From the IMG/VR virus record IMGVR_UViG_2695420793_000011: DNA of 12,246 nt. The stretch is one strand, 5' to 3'. Positions 1-6,477 of the stretch are shown here, piece by piece (within the stretch, counting starts at the first letter, position 1; every line of letters begins with the position of its first letter). The notes beneath the pieces were generated by a model, which saw only the letters and a list, made by a program, of their open reading frames with translations, was not told the origin of the DNA and made no database searches. This stretch comes from a virus (Duplodnaviria; Heunggongvirae; Uroviricota; Caudoviricetes). The position numbers were made by a program, and so were the translations under genes.

Positions 1-220
1 AGAGACGCACGCGATAGCGTCCGTCCGGTACGATTTGCAGGTTGTCCAGTTCGGCAAGTTGTTGCTCTCCAAGCCAGACAGGTGGCACGTTATCGCCAGC
101 CAGTCGCCCGTCCTGTTCCTGCCACTGTTTCGCATGTGCCCACGCATCACTACCCGCAAAAATGATGACTTCCGTCATTTTGTCACGCGGCTGGTGTTTT
201 AAATTTGGCGCTTTTTTCAT
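1..220 (-). CDS. hypothetical protein, N-terminal 73 codons only; gene continues beyond window start
   Basis: Minus-strand ATG at 220-218 opens a frame reading MKKAPNLKHQPRDKMTEVIIFAGSDAWAHAKQWQEQDGRLAGDNVPPVWLGEQQLAELDNLQ... with E. coli-like codons and no stop before the window edge. The ATG overlaps the TGA stop of the upstream 99-aa ORF (ATGA), suggesting translational coupling. Not in the ORF track because it is open-ended. Function unknown. Confidence 0.45.
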   Translation of the reverse strand, partial: MKKAPNLKHQPRDKMTEVIIFAGSDAWAHAKQWQEQDGRLAGDNVPPVWLGEQQLAELDNLQIVPDGRYRVRL

Positions 221-516
221 TTCTGCTCTCTCCACGCGGCAATCATGTTTTTTAGTTCCTGTAGTTTTTTATCAACATCCATACATGACACATGGTTATT
301 TCTGGAAAGCGGGATTTCCCGCCTGAATCTGCTAATAAAGATCTCCACGTTCAGCGAACTAAGAAATGAATAGCCATCACGGATAAAATACACACGGTCA
401 AACATCAGTTCTTTTACCGTTACTCTGTTACCGTTCTTATCCAGATAAATAGCGCCGGGGATAATTTGGGGGTGTGCATAACCGCTGGCAGTCAAGCCAG
501 ATAAATACGTTCTCAT
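217..516 (-). CDS. hypothetical protein (99 aa), member of leftward small-gene operon
   Basis: ORF-track frame. It is in the same frame as the upstream 106-aa ORF, separated only by a TAA stop and two codons, and its stop overlaps the next start (ATGA). No family recognised. Confidence 0.5.
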   Translation of the reverse strand: MRTYLSGLTASGYAHPQIIPGAIYLDKNGNRVTVKELMFDRVYFIRDGYSFLSSLNVEIFISRFRREIPLSRNNHVSCMDVDKKLQELKNMIAAWREQK

Positions 517-522
517 GATTAT

Positions 523-843
523 TTATCCCCGATTTGAATCAGTATTCGCTTTCTTTATAGCATTTAATGCATCTGTGGCATTTTCAATGGTGCACCGTAA
601 CGAAATATCAAAATGTCCAAGCATTGCCAGTAACAAACCGATATTACCCATATCAATGCGCATGGCCTTTTCGTCATAGTCCTCATTTTCTGACGCATGC
701 CACATCAGGCTACCAATTGACGCAACAGCCATTGATATATTGTCAGTAGCCCCATCCGCAGCGGAATAAATCTTTTTAGCAATATCATGCTCACAGTTAA
801 AATGCGGATTAATCAGGTACTGGTAATTTGACATATCAGGCAT
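523..843 (-). CDS. hypothetical protein (106 aa), member of leftward small-gene operon
   Basis: ORF-track frame. Its ATG at 843-841 overlaps the stop of the upstream 67-aa frame (ATGCCTGA). No family recognised. Confidence 0.5.
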   Translation of the reverse strand: MPDMSNYQYLINPHFNCEHDIAKKIYSAADGATDNISMAVASIGSLMWHASENEDYDEKAMRIDMGNIGLLLAMLGHFDISLRCTIENATDALNAIKKANTDSNRG

Positions 844-1039
844 GGCACACCCCCTGACGAATACGGGCGGCGAATACCATCACGCAGCCAGCCGGGGATT
901 GCTGGCGTGCTTCCTGTTCGCTGGTGGCCACGATGTGAATCACGCGCGGTTGTGCGGTGCTCAGGGCGATAAAACGCCAGATGTATTTATTCAGGTTGTA
1001 CGAGTCCCGCCCTTGCGGGTGTATGGTATGATTTCTCAT
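836..1039 (-). CDS. hypothetical small protein (67 aa, MRNHTIHPQGRDSYNLNKYIWRF...), probable first gene of leftward operon
   Basis: This is the 3' portion of the 362-aa minus-strand track ORF. An internal ATG at 1039-1037 is preceded by GAGG about 8 nt upstream. The longer upstream extension runs through the AT-rich promoter region and antisense to better plus-strand genes. An alternative start at about 1132 is possible. Confidence 0.35.
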   Translation of the reverse strand: MRNHTIHPQGRDSYNLNKYIWRFIALSTAQPRVIHIVATSEQEARQQSPAGCVMVFAARIRQGVCHA

Positions 1040-1235
1040 AGCTGCCTCGATAATCTTGCTATCGTTGGTGGTTAGAAGCCCCGTTACTGCTCCTACAGTG
1101 CGGGGTTTCGTCGTTTCTGCACCTTGCATTAACAAGGTGTAAGTAACTTTATTTATAGGTGGCTTACATGTCAATGCTTTTATGTAAGACTTTTTATGTG
1201 TATATTGTCTTACACTTTCATTGAGAGGATTACAG
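1040..1235. promoter_or_regulatory. divergent promoter/operator region between the leftward small-gene operon and the rightward regulator-like genes
   Basis: AT-rich intergenic stretch with repeated TGTAAG(A/T)/CTTACA elements, including an inverted pair GTAAGAC...GTCTTAC around 1180-1215 and TTACATGTCAA at about 1164-1176. A short GC stem (CCCCG...CGGGG) at about 1080-1107 lies in the leftward leader. Confidence 0.45.
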
Positions 1236-1541
1236 ATGGCTACAGGTTCAAAAAACGCAAAATCACAATCACTGACAGCTCGGATCCCGCATGATGTTAT
1301 TGAAGGCATGGAATCCGTAAAACTGGACGGTGAAAGCAACGCCGGATTCATAGTAACCGCCATGCGCGGTGAAATCGCCCGCCGCCAGGCAGAAGGAAGC
1401 GGAGAAAACCTCCTGGTTTCTTCGCTCGATGCCCTAGCGCAGGTGGAAAAAATCGGAGTCAAAGCCGCCGAGGAGATCGGGCAACTCGTCACCGTCGCGC
1501 GTGAAGAACTCCAGCGACGCAAGGTCAAAGAGCAGGAATAG
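1236..1541 (+). CDS. small acidic protein, putative DNA-binding regulator of the island (family not confirmed)
   Basis: ATG at 1236 is preceded by GAGAGG at 1224-1229. Codon usage is E. coli-like and a strong intrinsic terminator follows the transcription unit. The N-terminal segment SLTARIPHDVIEGMESV is reminiscent of ribbon-helix-helix-type regulators, but this is an impression only. The track's longer start at 1221 lacks an SD. Confidence 0.5.
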   Translation: MATGSKNAKSQSLTARIPHDVIEGMESVKLDGESNAGFIVTAMRGEIARRQAEGSGENLLVSSLDALAQVEKIGVKAAEEIGQLVTVAREELQRRKVKEQE

Positions 1542-1598
1542 CCACTATCAGCGCCATAGTTTGAGGAACGCAGGCGCATTGCTTTACAGGACAGCACC

Positions 1599-1778
1599 AT
1601 GAGCGACACAGAATCAACCAAAACACCATCACCAACTCGTAAGAGACGACGCAAAAATATAGCGCATGAACATGAATCAGAAAGATTCGCACCTTGTTCG
1701 TTTGCTCTTGAGAAATTCCTTAAAGAGCACAGGAAAAAGCTCTCGTTGCAAACCTTGGAACGAACCAAATCTGACTGA
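1599..1778 (+). CDS. possible small basic protein (59 aa, MSDTESTKTPSPTRKRRRKNIAHEHESERF...)
   Basis: Found by manual translation; below the ORF-track size cutoff. It lies between the 1236-1541 gene and the plus-strand terminator. Weak SD and rare codons (AGA, CGA, AGG, ATA) make it uncertain. Confidence 0.25.
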   Translation: MSDTESTKTPSPTRKRRRKNIAHEHESERFAPCSFALEKFLKEHRKKLSLQTLERTKSD

Positions 1779-1845
1779 TCACATTGCCCACCAGCCGCAA
1801 ATGTGGCATTGTTGGCGATGCGTTCAAGTTTAGTGTGTATCCATT

Positions 1846-1877
1846 GGCGACCGCCCCCGGTCGCCTTTGTTTTATAT
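1846..1877 (+). terminator. intrinsic terminator for the rightward island transcription unit
   Basis: Perfect 8-bp GC-rich stem GGCGACCG / CGGTCGCC with CCCC loop (1846-1865), followed by TTTGTTTTATAT. Confidence 0.6.
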
Positions 1878-1892
1878 GTCATATGCTCCCCT

Positions 1893-2117
1893 TTACGCTG
1901 CCTTACCTGAATTAACGCGGTCACGGCTTTGCACCCAGTCCATAACTTCGGAAAGCAACCAGCCTACAGAACGCCCCCCAAGATTACGGCGAGACGGAAA
2001 GCCCCCTTTCTTCTCCAGTTCGTAGCGTGTAGTACGGCTGACGCCTGTTAACTTACGACATTCATCCTCACGAATTACGCGATCTGTTAGTGATTGAAAT
2101 TGTGTATTTTGATTCAT
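1893..2117 (-). CDS. alpA: AlpA-family phage/island transcriptional regulator (excisionase-like HTH)
   Basis: 74-aa translation with segment LTGVSRTTRYELEKKGGFPSRRNLGGRSVGWLLSEVMDWVQSR, matching the AlpA/Xis-type motif (GxSRsTiY...G.FP....lG.R.v.W...ev..W). Position downstream of a P4-type integrase is typical. Confidence 0.7.
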   Translation of the reverse strand: MNQNTQFQSLTDRVIREDECRKLTGVSRTTRYELEKKGGFPSRRNLGGRSVGWLLSEVMDWVQSRDRVNSGKAA

Positions 2118-2220
2118 AAAAACACCCTCGAACGTAACCGAACAAGGGCATCTTATTTACCATAGCAGTTGGTGCAATATTGGAAAAATAAACTTTATTC
2201 TAATTTATCGTTCTCCATGA

Positions 2221-3075
2221 TTAATTTTCATTAGATAAAATTTTTCTTATTTTTTCTAAAGAATCGCTGCGCATTATTTTTTCTAAGAAGGGTTTTACAG
2301 TCTGAACAATAGCAAAGGTGTCCTTTTCACCATCAGGATACAAAGATACGGCAAGCACCCCTAATGAAATTTTTCTATCTGTAGACAACTCCCAAGATAA
2401 TAAGTCAATTAATGGGATTATCTTATAATCAATAATTTTACGTCGTATGCTCTCCCAACTTCCTGCAATTGGTTTGTCTGGCTCAACAATTGAAAGTTCA
2501 CTACGCCATTTTGGTAATAGTTTTGTAAACGCTTCAATCAACTCATCATCTCTGTTATGTAGTAAGTCAACAGAAACAAGCATATTATCTAATGTATCAG
2601 AAAGGAGATTCACTGGTTCACGCATCACAGCCCAAAACATCCCATTATCTTCTGATATTAAACTTCCAACCATCTCATTATCTATGATGATTGGTTTATC
2701 CTTCCAATATCCTCTTTCCGCAGTCAGTTTATTAATCATTGATATATCAAACCTTGTTACAGGTTTAATTCCATCATCATAACTTAGCTCAATTAACTTC
2801 GGTTGCACTTTATGGTCATATTCTTTTTGTTTATCACAAAACCAATCGTCTTCTTTCAGCTCTCCAAATGGATCCCCGTAATTATTATGCAACGGGTATT
2901 CAGCACCAAACATAAATCCATATTCAGGCATCTCAGAATGTTTCATTGTTAAATCATCTTGTCGCCAATATAATTGGCGAAATAGATCTTTATCCGACAA
3001 GTTTTCTAGGCAATCATATTTGCCTAAATCAAATGACTTTGGTAAATCTTTTTTACTATTTACTTTTTTCGTCAT
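2221..3075 (-). CDS. hypothetical cytoplasmic protein (284 aa), AT-rich cargo gene between integrase and alpA; function unknown
   Basis: Long uninterrupted frame in visibly AT-rich DNA. Its ATG at 3075-3073 overlaps the integrase TGA stop at 3074-3072 (ATGA). No transmembrane segment or catalytic motif recognised by eye. Confidence 0.65.
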   Translation of the reverse strand: MTKKVNSKKDLPKSFDLGKYDCLENLSDKDLFRQLYWRQDDLTMKHSEMPEYGFMFGAEYPLHNNYGDPFGELKEDDWFCDKQKEYDHKVQPKLIELSYDDGIKPVTRFDISMINKLTAERGYWKDKPIIIDNEMVGSLISEDNGMFWAVMREPVNLLSDTLDNMLVSVDLLHNRDDELIEAFTKLLPKWRSELSIVEPDKPIAGSWESIRRKIIDYKIIPLIDLLSWELSTDRKISLGVLAVSLYPDGEKDTFAIVQTVKPFLEKIMRSDSLEKIRKILSNEN

Positions 3076-4292
3076 TGTATCCCTCTCAATATCACAATAT
3101 TTTCATTATATCCTGCAATCATATCAAGACGCTCAACCCATAGATTCAGTGCGTCCCGTTTCGCCTGCAAATAGCGTGAATGGTTATAGGTTTTTTGCTG
3201 ACCTGGCATCTGATGCGCTGTGATGTGCTCCACGATATGCGGATCGACACCTAAATCATTCAGCATAGTTGTAAACGTGTGTCGGAAATCATGCAGCGTC
3301 CAGTGTTCCTGCTTAAGCCGCTTATGCGCATTTCGTCCATATTGCGCCACCGTGGTATCTTTTTTCAGTTCGCCGAGTAATAACCCAGTGTGTGCGTTTT
3401 GCTCCACCAGCTTCTGAATGAACGGCAAAATACCATCAGGAATAGGTCGGAATATTGTTACCTTCGTTTTGCTGTGCTCTTTTGGCACTGTCCACAACAT
3501 TTCTTTCAGGTCCCATTCTTTGATCTCTGAAAGTCTGATCTCTGCCGTTCTGCACCCGAACACAATTAACAAGCGCATTAACGCACTGTAATAGGGAGCG
3601 AACACATCACCATCAATAGCGCGTAGAATTTCTTTTAGTTCGCTGTTGCTGTGCACTCTCTCGCGGATTTCTGCTCTCTTACCCACATCAGTAACGATCA
3701 AATCGTCCAGGGCGTTGCTAAACGCGTAGCGCCGCCTGCGGCAAAACTTTAGCGCCTGTTTGCATGTCTGCATGACATGGCCCGCTGCTACTGGTGCTTT
3801 TTTTCGTACGCGGTCAAAACATGCGATCCACTGCCTTGTATCACACTTATCAAGGGGAATTGCCCCAATATGGCAAATGATGTGCTTATCCATACGCTGC
3901 ACCAGCTTTATGTAATCTTTGCGGTTATCCTTCGCGTATTCCTCCAGCCAGTAGTTAATCGCTTCCTTCACCGTAACGGGTTTTAGTGCTTCCTGTACTG
4001 TGGCGCACAACTCATAACGGGGGTTTTTACCCTCAGCCAGCCATGCCCGGCACAGTGTGCGTTTTTCCCTTGCGGCTTTCAGCGACAATTCAGGGTAAGC
4101 CCCCAGCTTTAACCGCTCTGCGGCAACCTCACGGCCTCCCGTTCGGTACCGGAAATACCAGGTTAATTTGCCGCCCTTTGAGTGTTTAATCTCCAGCCCG
4201 CCCCCGTCGGAGTAAAAACGCTCTTTTTCTGCCTGGACAGCCGCCAATTTTTTTAACGTCGAATCGCTCAGTTTGTTTAGTGCTTTTCCCAC
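3072..4292 (-). CDS. int: P4-type tyrosine site-specific integrase
   Basis: 406 aa. The N-terminal arm-binding-type region (DGGGLEIKHSKGGKLTWYFRYRTGGREVAAERLKLGAYPELSLKAAREKR) resembles P4/CP4-57 integrases. The C-terminus has the HxxR box (HDFRHTF) and a candidate catalytic Tyr (KTYNHSRY). GTG start at 4292 with AGAGGA about 9 nt upstream. Confidence 0.85.
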   Translation of the reverse strand: MGKALNKLSDSTLKKLAAVQAEKERFYSDGGGLEIKHSKGGKLTWYFRYRTGGREVAAERLKLGAYPELSLKAAREKRTLCRAWLAEGKNPRYELCATVQEALKPVTVKEAINYWLEEYAKDNRKDYIKLVQRMDKHIICHIGAIPLDKCDTRQWIACFDRVRKKAPVAAGHVMQTCKQALKFCRRRRYAFSNALDDLIVTDVGKRAEIRERVHSNSELKEILRAIDGDVFAPYYSALMRLLIVFGCRTAEIRLSEIKEWDLKEMLWTVPKEHSKTKVTIFRPIPDGILPFIQKLVEQNAHTGLLLGELKKDTTVAQYGRNAHKRLKQEHWTLHDFRHTFTTMLNDLGVDPHIVEHITAHQMPGQQKTYNHSRYLQAKRDALNLWVERLDMIAGYNENIVILRGIQ

Positions 4293-4328
4293 TATCAGAT
4301 CCTCTTTTCAGTCCTCCAGCCTCAAAAA

Positions 4329-4352
4329 ACTGACCACACAACTGACCACACA
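4329..4352. repeat. tandem direct repeat (A)CTGACCACACA x2 immediately upstream of int
   Basis: Two 11-bp units CTGACCACACA at 4330-4340 and 4342-4352, 12-bp period. Followed at 4369-4386 by CGAACAAC x2 with 10-bp period, within an ACAA-rich tract. Confidence 0.5.
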
Positions 4353-4480
4353 TTTTGTTGAAGCTCTACGAACAACGACGAACAACAACAAACAAGAAAA
4401 CAGGATAATTTATTGTTTATCAAATACATACATAAACAACCACAAGCAACCCCGAACCACAAAAAACACTAAATGAGAAA

Positions 4481-4540
4481 ATACGGGTATTTCTCAGCCT
4501 TCACGCAGAAGGGCACCCCGAGTCGTTTGGTTGCGATGAT
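4481..4540 (-). ncRNA. 5' portion of the thiM TPP (thiamine pyrophosphate) riboswitch aptamer, truncated at the island junction
   Basis: The minus strand reads AACCAAACGACTCGGGGTGCCCTTCTGCGTGAAGGCTGAGAAATACCCGTAT, matching from memory the 5' half of the E. coli thiM leader including the conserved CUGAGA element. After ACCCGUAU the expected CACCUGAUCUGGAUAAUGCCAGCG is replaced by unrelated sequence running into int. Confidence 0.65.
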
Positions 4541-4621
4541 AAATCGCAGAGGAGGATGGTAATGTCCAGCGCACGCGTTGTAAACGAGGAAAAACGGCAG
4601 TTTTACAATCGCGTTAATAAA

Positions 4622-4894
4622 TTATTTGATATATGAATCCAGCACCTTCAGAACGACATCCAGATCTTCTTCACGTTTTAGCTCATCCCCCTGGTGAACG
4701 ATGTGTTCCGTCAGATGACCTTTAATCACTTCCCGTATCAGACCGTTTACCGCGCCACGGATAGCAGCAATCTGTTGTAAAACTGCAGCGCATTCGTGCG
4801 GCTCGTCGAGCATTTTCTTGAGCGCCACGACCTGGCCCTGAATCTTACTGGCACGCGCTTTCAGTTTCTGTTTATCACGGATTGTATGAGACAT
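4622..4894 (-). CDS. rcnR: RcnR, Ni/Co-responsive transcriptional repressor (CsoR/RcnR family)
   Basis: 90-aa translation recognised as RcnR ([52 protein letters not shown]...), divergent from rcnA. Confidence 0.9.
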
Positions 4895-4942
4895 GGCAAC
4901 ACCTGGTTAACAAGAATATGAAAAATCATAGCACTATTAATC

Positions 4943-4977
4943 TACTGGGGGGTAGTATCAGGTACTGGGGGGGAGTA
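4943..4977. promoter_or_regulatory. two RcnR operator sites (TACT-G6/7-N-AGTA) in the rcnR-rcnA intergenic region
   Basis: TACTGGGGGGTAGTA at 4943-4957 and TACTGGGGGGGAGTA at 4963-4977, matching the described RcnR G-tract operator architecture. Confidence 0.75.
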
Positions 4978-5014
4978 GAATCAGATTGCCGAATTAATAC
5001 TAAGAATTATTATC

Positions 5015-5839
5015 ATGACCGAATTTACAACTCTTCTTCAGCAAGGAAACGCCTGGTTCTTCATCCCCAGCGCCATCTTACTTGGTGCGCTTCATGGCCT
5101 GGAACCAGGGCACTCAAAAACGATGATGGCGGCGTTTATCATCGCCATCAAAGGCACCATTAAACAGGCGGTGATGCTCGGACTGGCAGCAACTATTTCG
5201 CATACCGCAGTGGTCTGGTTAATTGCCTTTGGCGGGATGGTGATCAGCAAGCGCTTTACTGCTCAATCAGCAGAACCGTGGCTCCAGCTGATTTCCGCAG
5301 TGATCATTATTGGCACCGCGTTCTGGATGTTCTGGCGTACCTGGCGCGGCGAACGCAACTGGCTGGAGAATATGCACGAGTATGATCATGAACATCATCA
5401 CCACGATCACGAAGATCACCACGACCATGGACATCATCACCATCACGAACATGGCGAGTATCAGGATGCCCATGCACGAGCCCATGCCAATGATATTAAA
5501 CGACGCTTTGATGGTAGAGAGGTCACCAACTGGCAAATTTTGTTATTTGGCTTAACAGGTGGTCTTATCCCCTGTCCGGCAGCAATTACCGTGCTGTTGA
5601 TTTGCATTCAGTTGAAAGCCCTGACACTGGGCGCAACACTGGTCGTCAGTTTCAGCATTGGCCTGGCGTTAACGCTTGTCACCGTAGGCGTTGGCGCAGC
5701 AATCAGCGTTCAGCAGGTCGCAAAACGCTGGAGCGGATTTAACACTCTCGCTAAACGCGCCCCCTATTTTTCCAGTCTGTTGATTGGCTTAGTCGGTGTG
5801 TATATGGGCGTACATGGCTTCATGGGCATAATGCGATAA
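5015..5839 (+). CDS. rcnA: RcnA nickel/cobalt efflux transporter with His-rich cytoplasmic loop
   Basis: 274-aa membrane protein recognised as RcnA. It has the HGLEPGHSKT motif and a His/Asp/Glu-rich loop (EYDHEHHHHDHEDHHDHGHHHHHEHGEY) encoded at about 5390-5460. Confidence 0.9.
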   Translation: MTEFTTLLQQGNAWFFIPSAILLGALHGLEPGHSKTMMAAFIIAIKGTIKQAVMLGLAATISHTAVVWLIAFGGMVISKRFTAQSAEPWLQLISAVIIIGTAFWMFWRTWRGERNWLENMHEYDHEHHHHDHEDHHDHGHHHHHEHGEYQDAHARAHANDIKRRFDGREVTNWQILLFGLTGGLIPCPAAITVLLICIQLKALTLGATLVVSFSIGLALTLVTVGVGAAISVQQVAKRWSGFNTLAKRAPYFSSLLIGLVGVYMGVHGFMGIMR

Positions 5840-6057
5840 CTCAATCCTTTAGGCTTGCATGTTATCTTCAGCCCAGGATGATTCTTAAATCAGCTATTTC
5901 CGCTGACTCTCTGCTCGCTAAGGATGCTTTTAGGGCATCCTTTCATTTACACTTTTTACGAAATCATGGGATCACTAACAAAATATCGCTTGTCAGTTAT
6001 ATTGTATGGCAGGAAAGATATGCGACTGATATTACAGATCCCCAAAGTGGAGAGTTT

Positions 6058-6396
6058 ATGACCATTAAAAATAAGATGTTGCTGGGTGCGCTTTTGCTGG
6101 TTACCAGTGCCGCCTGGGCCGCACCAGCCACCGCGGGTTCGACCAATACCTCGGGAATTTCTAAGTATGAGTTAAGCAGTTTCATTGCTGACTTTAAGCA
6201 TTTCAAACCAGGCGATACCGTCCCAGAGATGTACCGCACCGATGAGTACAACATTAAGCAGTGGCAGTTACGTAACCTGCCCGCGCCTGATGCCGGGACG
6301 CACTGGACCTATATGGGTGGCGCGTACGTGTTGATCAGCGACACCGACGGTAAAATCATTAAAGCCTACGACGGTGAGATTTTTTATCATCGCTAA
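6058..6396 (+). CDS. rcnB: RcnB (YohN) periplasmic protein of the Ni/Co efflux system
   Basis: 112 aa starting MTIKNKMLLGALLLVTSAAWA (signal peptide), ATG at 6058 with GGAGAG SD. The track ORF from 5878 is an upstream in-frame extension without SD. Confidence 0.85.
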   Translation: MTIKNKMLLGALLLVTSAAWAAPATAGSTNTSGISKYELSSFIADFKHFKPGDTVPEMYRTDEYNIKQWQLRNLPAPDAGTHWTYMGGAYVLISDTDGKIIKAYDGEIFYHR

Positions 6397-6425
6397 AAAA
6401 AGCCCCCTCATCATGAGGGGGAAAT
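6397..6425 (-). terminator. intrinsic terminator between convergent rcnB and yehA, with the U-tract on the yehA side
   Basis: Stem CCCCCTCA / TGAGGGGG at 6403-6421. On the minus-strand transcript the hairpin is followed by the T-run complementary to the A-run at 6395-6401. Confidence 0.55.
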
Positions 6426-6477
6426 GCAGACACCTTGTTATTTTTTATTATTAGCCACTTGCTCGTCTTGCTTGTTA

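Follow-up and report, generated by a model that had tools for sequence, protein, structure and literature searches.

The interval between positions 1,040 and 1,235 of a 12,246-nucleotide stretch of DNA (Caudoviricetes; IMG/VR record IMGVR_UViG_2695420793_000011), the whole of which is referred to here as the window, is probably the control region of a phage satellite, in which a repressor of the ribbon-helix-helix (RHH) type would act at four short sites laid over two divergent promoters. The proposed repressor is a 101-residue protein of the YlcI/YnfO family, encoded at 1236-1541 on the plus strand, and the satellite appears from its gene content and ends to be a 10.4-kb Gram-negative phage-inducible chromosomal island (PICI) in E. 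coli. The placement of the sites relative to the promoter elements, the conservation of this architecture and the covariation of the sites with a predicted β-strand segment of the protein were computed directly. Mechanistically, an RHH repressor with operators over divergent promoters is a familiar device. It rises above the routine in being undescribed for the YlcI/YnfO family, in occurring in the prototype Gram-negative PICI, whose repressor question stayed open, and in coming with clear natural swaps of specificity and with a candidate antisense RNA that is likely to have escaped annotation.

Operator-like sites over divergent promoters

Both the divergent layout described in the initial annotation and the copies of TGTAAG and CTTACA noticed between its two units were borne out; the leftward operon starts at 1039, and the rightward gene occupies 1236-1541. 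On the plus strand TGTAAG lies at 1138-1143 and 1183-1188 and CTTACA at 1163-1168 and 1209-1214, giving four copies of alternating orientation that span 1138-1214 in steps of 22 to 24 bp. Steps of this length place all four sites roughly on one face of the helix. The inverted pair that had been reported just upstream of the 1236 start is real, and its 8-nt arms (TGTAAGAC at 1183-1190 and GTCTTACA at 1207-1214) are 100% complementary, but the gap between them is 16 nt and not about 17. A second inverted pair is formed by TGTAAG at 1138 and CTTACA at 1163, with a gap of 19 nt.

The probability that this clustering is a chance product of an AT-rich intergenic region is very close to nil, although the window does lend the idea some material. 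Over the window as a whole, TGTAAG occurs just as often as expected (6 vs. 6.06), and once the search is corrected to cover all hexamers, 21 of 150 random sequences (about 14%) contain some hexamer clustered fourfold, so the window by itself is only suggestive. Against chance, four of the six TGTAAG copies in the window fall inside 77 bp, and none of 1500 first-order Markov sequences held four copies of TGTAAG within 80 nt. A search for further clusters or operator copies of the motif elsewhere in the island found none. The decisive support is comparative and comes from related loci. In different genera the repeats keep their position, orientation and spacing, and their sequence covaries with part of a protein, as detailed below.

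A consensus scan of 800-2300 returned only one sigma-70-like site, the leftward promoter P_L (1146-1174, minus strand). Its -35 TTGACA (1174-1169) and -10 TAAAGT (1151-1146) are separated by a 17-nt spacer, 10 of 12 positions match the consensus, and transcription is predicted to start near 1139. Those relatives that were read by eye contain TTGAC and a TAnnnT hexamer at a spacing of 17-18 nt. The putative rightward promoter P_R (1178-1206, plus strand) has a -10 TATATT (1201-1206), a weak -35 TTTTAT (1178-1183) and a predicted start near 1213, and a TAnnnT hexamer, usually gtgTATAcT, is found at the equivalent place in all unique upstream regions. An extended -10 (TGn) was considered for P_R and rejected, as the TG is out of register. 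The ribosome-binding site GAGAGGA lies 6 nt upstream of the ATG at 1236. P_L is predicted to drive the operon of the Icd-like, DUF4222 and primase genes, and P_R the 1236-1541 gene.

The four candidate operators are distributed over these promoters in pairs. Site A (GTGTAAGTA, 1137-1145, plus strand, about -101 from the ylcI-like ATG) covers roughly -6 to +1 of P_L, while site A' (ATGTAAGCC on the minus strand, 1161-1169, about -78) occupies the P_L spacer and abuts its -35. Site B (ATGTAAGAC, 1182-1190, plus strand, about -56) lies in the P_R spacer, and site B' (GTGTAAGAC on the minus strand, 1207-1215, about -33) stands directly 3' of the P_R -10, over the predicted start. A and A' thus bracket the -10 of P_L and B and B' that of P_R, an arrangement of back-to-back promoters in which the outer site of each pair covers a predicted transcription start. 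This bracketing, together with the comparative data, supports the earlier description of the repeats as an operator.

Covariation of the sites with one protein segment

Related loci were sampled from IMG/VR (80), from metagenomes (80) and from other genera (11, one of them a Pseudomonas contig). The divergent pair of an Icd-like gene and a YlcI-like gene is widespread, and of 5426 complete E. coli genomes 1331 (about a quarter) contain a relative of the 221-nt control region, in 303 cases over at least 80% of its length. The four site positions are kept in about 170 related loci. More than 55 distinct upstream regions share the same layout, in which the sites lie near -101 (+), -78 (-), -56 (+) and -33 (-) relative to the ATG, with gTCAA between sites two and three and a TAnnnT hexamer between sites three and four. 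The hosts include E. coli, Salmonella, Klebsiella, Enterobacter, Yersinia, Photorhabdus, Xenorhabdus and Pantoea in addition to the Pseudomonas contig. Conservation in related islands, which had been suggested as a check on the repeats, is therefore one of position: the four places are kept, and the sequence that fills them is not conserved and changes in all four together, as a block with the protein strand.

The repeat core tracks residues 12-15 of the 1236-1541 product, inside the motif K9-S10-Q11-x-x-x-x-R16-[IV]-P18. Proteins with SLTA, SVTA or SVTV at these residues accompany TGTAAG, the core of the window; LTTV and LFTV go with TGTGTTTC, MTTV with TGTATTTC, and MTTI with GATATACA or GAGATACA. 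QISI is paired with TGTGATT, QLNA with GCGATTC, IKNV with TGTGCAT or TGTGTAT, and the ALKA signature of the island EcCICFT073 with GTGGCCCAC. Where residues 12 and 14 are the same the core is the same, even if 13 and 15 differ. Many of the sites show partial dyad symmetry (GTG...CAC) around a variable centre, and we infer that a symmetric dimer would touch the site ends with its conserved residues and read the middle with the variable residues of its strand. Site B is the weakest or most degenerate site in other classes, and short-protein variants retain A, A' and B' but not B. The LTTV, LFTV and MTTI classes (e.g., L042, L006 and L129) carry a fifth class-specific repeat at about -122 from the ATG, roughly 22 bp beyond site A and inside the leftward leader, where the class of the window has none.

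Recombinant loci separate the candidate binders. In three of them, L035, L081 and L038, the Icd-like gene and the DNA that follows about codon 30 of the repressor gene are approximately 92-100% identical to the window, a similarity that in L035 and L081 extends through the 59-aa open reading frame (ORF). Identity falls to 40-76% exactly across window positions 1100-1300. Their proteins match that of the window from residue 25 to the end save for one to three residues, the first 24 residues differ, and the operators are those of other classes. The swapped cassette therefore consists of the operators and the first ~22 codons of the gene, and it contains no other coding sequence. The reverse case is provided by L010 (Superficieibacter) and L012 (Xenorhabdus), which have short RHH-only proteins and Icd-like N-termini unlike that of the window, differ from it in the remainder of their proteins as well, and yet share with it the TGTAAGAC sites and the S12/T14 strand. 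As only the N-terminus of the 1236-1541 product travels with the operators, its earlier nomination as the binder is rated as supported. This co-travel of the cassette appears to be the strongest evidence for the binder short of experiment.

The same loci bear on whether the repeats could be operators of another factor, such as the product of the 59-aa ORF, the Icd-like protein, AlpA, or a helper-phage or host protein. This is very unlikely, even though PHROG 6196/1743 labels the family of the Icd-like protein "transcriptional repressor" and AlpA is a known regulator of such islands (PMC6092414). The 59-aa ORF at 1599-1778, which had been put forward as a second possible binder, shows 100% identity in L035 and L042 in spite of their different repeats and so does not set the specificity; it is an accessory gene. 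L035, L063 and L067 have different operators with an Icd-like protein that is 89-93% identical, and L010 combines unchanged repeats with a different Icd-like protein. The identity of AlpA shows no dependence on repeat class, and the first ~22 codons of the 1236-1541 gene are the sole coding part of the swapped cassette.

It is very unlikely that the 1236-1541 and 1599-1778 genes, which share a transcription unit, form a type II toxin-antitoxin pair whose repeats serve the autoregulation of the pair and not the control of the island. No toxin family matches the 59-aa ORF, and of 172 loci only 96 had a detected copy of it. The divergent promoter of the replication operon carries two of the four sites, strong ones included, and the short-protein variants keep both of these, the missing one being on the rightward promoter.

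A further possibility is that the inverted repeats are not protein operators at all and instead form RNA hairpins in both leaders or act as the iterons of a replication origin. Each pair can be folded, the leftward leader has more structure than expected from shuffling (z = -3.75), and PICI origins are built from repeats (PMC6092414). Each predicted start, however, falls within an outer arm, so that no complete pair would be transcribed, and all four sites change together and not pair by pair. Site B is often degenerate and a TGT is invariant, which fits a protein site and not a helix. The motif is found nowhere else in the island, and in L067 the proteins of the leftward operon other than the primase are 94-97% identical to those of the window, yet the repeats are different. 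Taken over both of its forms, this explanation is highly improbable. The leader does contain a stem-loop of its own (CACCTTG-6-CAAGGTG, 1120-1139, minus strand), located where the leftward mRNA is predicted to begin, with compensating changes in its arms in L010, L012 and L152 (by eye). The 3' arm of this stem-loop extends over the flank of site A, and it could be a stabiliser of the mRNA or a competitor of repressor binding.

The proposed repressor and its switch

The product of 1236-1541 belongs to NCBIfam NF041551 (YlcI_YnfO_N), which it matches over residues 9-50 with 71.4 bits against a cut-off of 30, in agreement with the RefSeq annotation; no Pfam model scored above threshold. Some homologs are labelled "Arc-like DNA binding domain" or "CopG family" in their source records. 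An AlphaFold2 (AF2) monomer model built with 41 homologs has an overall predicted local distance difference test (pLDDT) score of 80, with helices at residues 19-28 and 35-53 (~87), an extended N-terminus and a confident 42-residue C-terminal helix at residues 59-100. The turn typical of RHH proteins just before the second helix is found here as G32-E33-S34, of which E33 and S34 are invariant and G32 is nearly so. Residues 12, 13 and 15 are among the most variable of the protein, and invariant N7, K9, S10, R16 and P18 surround them. The motif K-S-Q-x-x-x-x-R-[IV]-P fits the register of Arc and Mnt and sets R16, T14 and S12 on Arc R13, N11 and Q9, a correspondence by which R16, residue 14 and residue 12 would face the DNA. 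The N-terminal domain is probably an RHH fold.

A profile search of the PDB gave a marginal match of residues 45-86 (nt 1368-1493) to the helix-hairpin-helix (HhH) region of Hef (E = 0.006; L..VE.IG.KAA.EI), and one homolog has a weak Pfam HHH_2 match. An HhH domain is not claimed, as AF2 models one continuous confident helix in this segment, which may contact DNA or serve oligomerisation only. A tblastn search of 50,697 phage genomes found no match to the protein, which at this level of similarity makes it a protein of satellites or islands.

Two back-to-back promoters would then fire outward, P_L toward replication and the functions downstream and P_R toward the 1236-1541 gene. The product is expected to be dimeric, with a β-strand at residues ~11-17 that reads a 9-11 bp site of the form RTGTAAGNM. 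Occupancy of the sites would shut down the replication operon, leaving the island quiescent, and would also limit the synthesis of the repressor itself. The long C-terminal helix probably joins neighbouring dimers and so would allow cooperative filling of sites that lie 22-24 bp apart. Repression is most likely lifted by way of helper-induced AlpA, which is encoded upstream. Transcription driven by AlpA would run in the direction of the replication operon and antisense to the repressor gene, so that it could both hinder repressor synthesis and read into the operon. The rightward unit ends in an intrinsic terminator (GGCGACCGCCCCCGGTCGCC and then a T-run, 1846-1865, plus strand) that has its T-run on the plus strand only; with no such run on the minus strand, alpA transcripts may read through it. 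It is possible that this read-through, antisense to the repressor gene and directed toward the Icd-like/primase operon, constitutes a switch based on convergent transcription. The earlier description of the interval as a lysogeny-type switch is reasonable because the operon under control holds the replication genes of an integrated satellite, with repression, binding and the inducing signal entering as predictions.

Several points weigh against a four-site RHH switch. Binding, repression and autoregulation by the 1236-1541 product are deduced from sequence. The -35 of P_R is poor, and the consensus promoter scan did not call P_R. A spacing of 22-24 bp is unusual for RHH operators, which normally abut. 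In the AF2 monomer residues 11-17 are extended and no strand is called, as is to be expected where the RHH sheet forms only in the dimer. An hhalign comparison with Arc and Mnt gave the right register at low probability and did not reach significance, a Foldseek search of the PDB with the model found no match, and no RHH chain was among the matches of the PDB sequence profile. The covariation itself comprises about eight independent specificity classes and not hundreds, and neighbouring DNA and protein segments are co-inherited, so linkage alone gives some correlation. The argument hangs on the concerted change of the four sites and on the sharp boundaries of the cassettes.

Among known systems, the proposed switch resembles in plan the immI region of phage P22 (Mnt and Arc; Pant and Pmnt), in which a small RHH repressor gene is divergent from the operon that it controls and the operators lie over closely spaced opposing promoters. 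Mnt joins an RHH N-terminal domain to a C-terminal helical oligomerisation domain. Sequence similarity to Mnt and Arc is not significant, however, and each of those proteins binds one compact operator of abutting half-sites, whereas four sites 22-24 bp apart are found here. The controlled operon of P22 begins with an antirepressor gene and that of the island with the Icd-like gene and primase, and P22 is a phage while the present element is a satellite. MatP and TraM likewise combine an RHH DNA-binding domain with a helical oligomerisation domain, as is proposed here. Omega of pSM19035 and plasmid repressors of the CopG and ParG type, which bind arrays of short repeats, offer a second RHH parallel, with one dimer per short asymmetric repeat in either orientation and with cooperative filling and autoregulation, both of which are proposed here; the (A)ATCACA core of the QISI class resembles the omega heptad. 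Omega heptads, in contrast, are contiguous with a 7-bp period, whereas the period here is 22-24 bp with promoter hexamers between the sites, and the 42-residue C-terminal helix is an addition relative to these proteins.

Among satellites a counterpart in position is the master repressor Stl (Rpr) in the divergent stl-str control region of the Staphylococcus aureus pathogenicity islands (SaPIs) and Gram-positive PICIs (PMC6092414). Stl also lies between the integrase end and the replication operon, is opposed to that operon, and is presumed, like the protein proposed here, to silence the island until a helper phage acts. The Stl proteins are large helix-turn-helix (HTH) proteins, unrelated in sequence and fold. 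The stl gene points the same way as int, whereas in the present island int and alpA share the direction of the repressed operon. For Stl, a helper protein has been shown to relieve repression, while the helper of Gram-negative PICIs acts at least through AlpA (PMC6092414).

A candidate antisense RNA and the satellite setting

The left half of the interval contains a conserved antisense element that the initial annotation missed. At 1037-1120 on the plus strand lies a conserved structured RNA that comprises a 5' stem-loop, UGGUUAGA, a 14-bp hairpin (1075-1089/1096-1109) and a T-rich interrupted tail, and it is antisense to the 5' untranslated region, the Shine-Dalgarno sequence and the start codon of the Icd-like gene. 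Across 24 diverse sequences, 95.5% of the cells of the hairpin are paired and 8 of 14 pairs show compensatory double changes; none of 500 shuffles reached the observed values, and slid controls gave 40-50%. The consensus energy is -22.6 kcal/mol on the plus strand compared with -14.1 on the minus strand, and 41 G-U pairs are found against 2 A-C. The energies and the excess of G-U identify the functional strand as the one antisense to the Icd-like mRNA. A covariance model detects the element in one orientation in every module-bearing locus searched, with 58-87 bits in all complete loci but one, and it also matches EcCICFT073 (L175 25770-25855; CFT073 1,380,769-1,380,854, minus strand).

RefSeq has no annotation at 1037-1120. 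Rfam searches of 1-4600, and of 990-1240 with lax filters, found no credible family, with SprD, mt-tmRNA and mir-92 at 12-16 bits, far below threshold. No match of the element to C4 or isrK was obtained even at E up to 10, and an identity as an immunity RNA of the C4, isrK or CI type was rejected for want of an Rfam match. A candidate extended -10 for the RNA (TGGTATGAT, 1024-1032, plus strand; TAnnnT at 1027-1032) lies within the Icd-like coding sequence. Its TAnnnT is kept in all classes across differing codons (His CAT, Cys TGT, Ser TCT and Arg CGT), the codon always ending in T; no convincing -35 was seen. On balance there is an even chance that 1037-1120 encodes a cis-antisense RNA of ~80 nt that would cover the Icd-like start codon and its ribosome-binding site, and such an RNA may add a second layer of control to that of the repressor. 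In one metagenomic locus, L102, a second copy of the element (3172-3255, 74 bits) lies ~370 nt 3' of the repressor gene, which suggests tandem or nested modules.

If expressed, the RNA would be a functional analogue of the P1 immI region (c4 RNA-icd-ant), in which the first gene of the operon is of the Icd type and a small structured RNA is placed so as to block its ribosome-binding site. The geometry would be different, as P1 c4 and the CI RNA of satellite P4 are cut from the same strand as the target operon and pair through short complementary loops, while the present candidate lies on the opposite strand and is fully complementary. Some Gram-negative PICIs do carry RNAs of the C4/isrK type (PMC10111431).

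The island occupies the left of the window. The window is E. coli chromosome, in which a 10.4-kb island has inserted between thiM and rcnR; window positions 1-4395 make up the right part of this island, and 4622-12246 contain the housekeeping genes rcnR-rcnA-rcnB, the yehABCD fimbrial operon and an IS1 fragment. The island is bounded by 70-nt direct repeats that are 94% identical and 10,377 bp apart (L001 7949-8018 / 18326-18395), one of which is the attachment-site repeat at 4326-4395 (plus strand) at the integrase end, its partner lying leftward beyond the window. Adjoining this repeat is the tyrosine integrase gene (3072-4292, minus strand), followed by the genes for a DUF6387 protein (2221-3075, minus strand) and an AlpA-family regulator (1893-2117, minus strand; PF05930). 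The rightward unit contains the proposed repressor gene and, 3' of it, the basic 59-aa ORF (plus strand; PHROG 21027). The leftward operon, with overlapping starts and stops among its genes, contains the Icd-like gene (836-1039, minus strand; PHROG 6196/1743), a 106-aa ORF (523-843, minus strand), the DUF4222 gene (217-516, minus strand) and a primase gene that starts at 220 (minus strand). Outside the window the same island holds the rest of the primase, one gene for a prohead-protease/capsid fusion and one DUF1441 gene.

This content is that of a PICI: a size in the range of ~10-15 kb, attachment repeats at both ends, an integrase at one end, an AlpA regulator, a primase-type replication gene and few morphogenesis or packaging genes, with no full set of phage structural and lysis genes. 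The gene plan matches that described for Gram-negative PICIs (PMC6092414, PMC10111431), and the layout is collinear with that of EcCICFT073, for which dependence on a helper phage for induction, replication and packaging has been demonstrated (PMC6092414).

EcCICFT073 (CFT073 1,377,930-1,388,654; L175 22931-33655) has the same gene order: int and an alpA-type HTH gene come first, the opposite strand then encodes a small ORF and a YlcI/YnfO protein of 59 aa, and the island continues with Icd-like, DUF4222, primase, SSB, PerC and the capsid gene c1499. Its control region has GGTGTGGCCCAC twice around a TTGACG-18-TATAGT promoter and GTCCCCCAC after gtgTATACT, and the strand signature of its YlcI/YnfO protein, ALKA, is a further class. 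By sequence, the same undescribed switch module appears to be present there. In 2018 the global repressor of EcCICFT073 was left unclear, and helper-induced AlpA was found to activate its cycle, with runaway replication upon AlpA over-expression (PMC6092414). A literature search found no paper naming the EcCICFT073 repressor and no description of a divergent YlcI/YnfO / Icd-like switch; a 2026 survey mentions YlcI/YnfO as a "prophage-associated protein" only (PMC13612085). We tentatively propose, with somewhat less than even confidence, that the YlcI/YnfO protein is the master repressor of many Gram-negative PICIs, EcCICFT073 among them, that its exchangeable specificity cassettes define immunity groups among co-resident satellites, that the ~80-nt antisense RNA blocks translation of the Icd-like gene, and that helper-induced AlpA transcription, antisense to the repressor gene, flips the switch.

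Gram-negative PICIs are common, and virulence and defence genes spread with them. A repressor role of the RHH protein, if correct, would explain how these islands stay silent and would give a directly testable handle in EcCICFT073 in the form of gene C_RS30120 (CFT073 1,380,473-1,380,652) and the GTGTGGCCCAC sites. The cassette swaps would amount to a recognition table for an RHH family, with strand residues 12 and 14 set against the central base pairs, and sequence alone would suffice to sort satellites into immunity groups. If the antisense RNA is expressed, hundreds of E. coli genomes would gain a family of small RNAs that is missing from their annotation.

Satellites often place cargo or anti-phage genes in the slot between the integrase and alpA, which here holds the DUF6387 gene, found in only 8 of 172 related loci. 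Elsewhere in the same island, outside the window, 80-nt direct repeats with 91% identity (L001 9398-9477 and 11934-12013) lie around the prohead-protease/capsid fusion gene and may be a duplicated promoter or terminator or the recombination scars of a captured capsid gene. At the right edge of the window, beside yehE, lies the IS1 transposase fragment (11853-12230, minus strand), which has no relation to the island.

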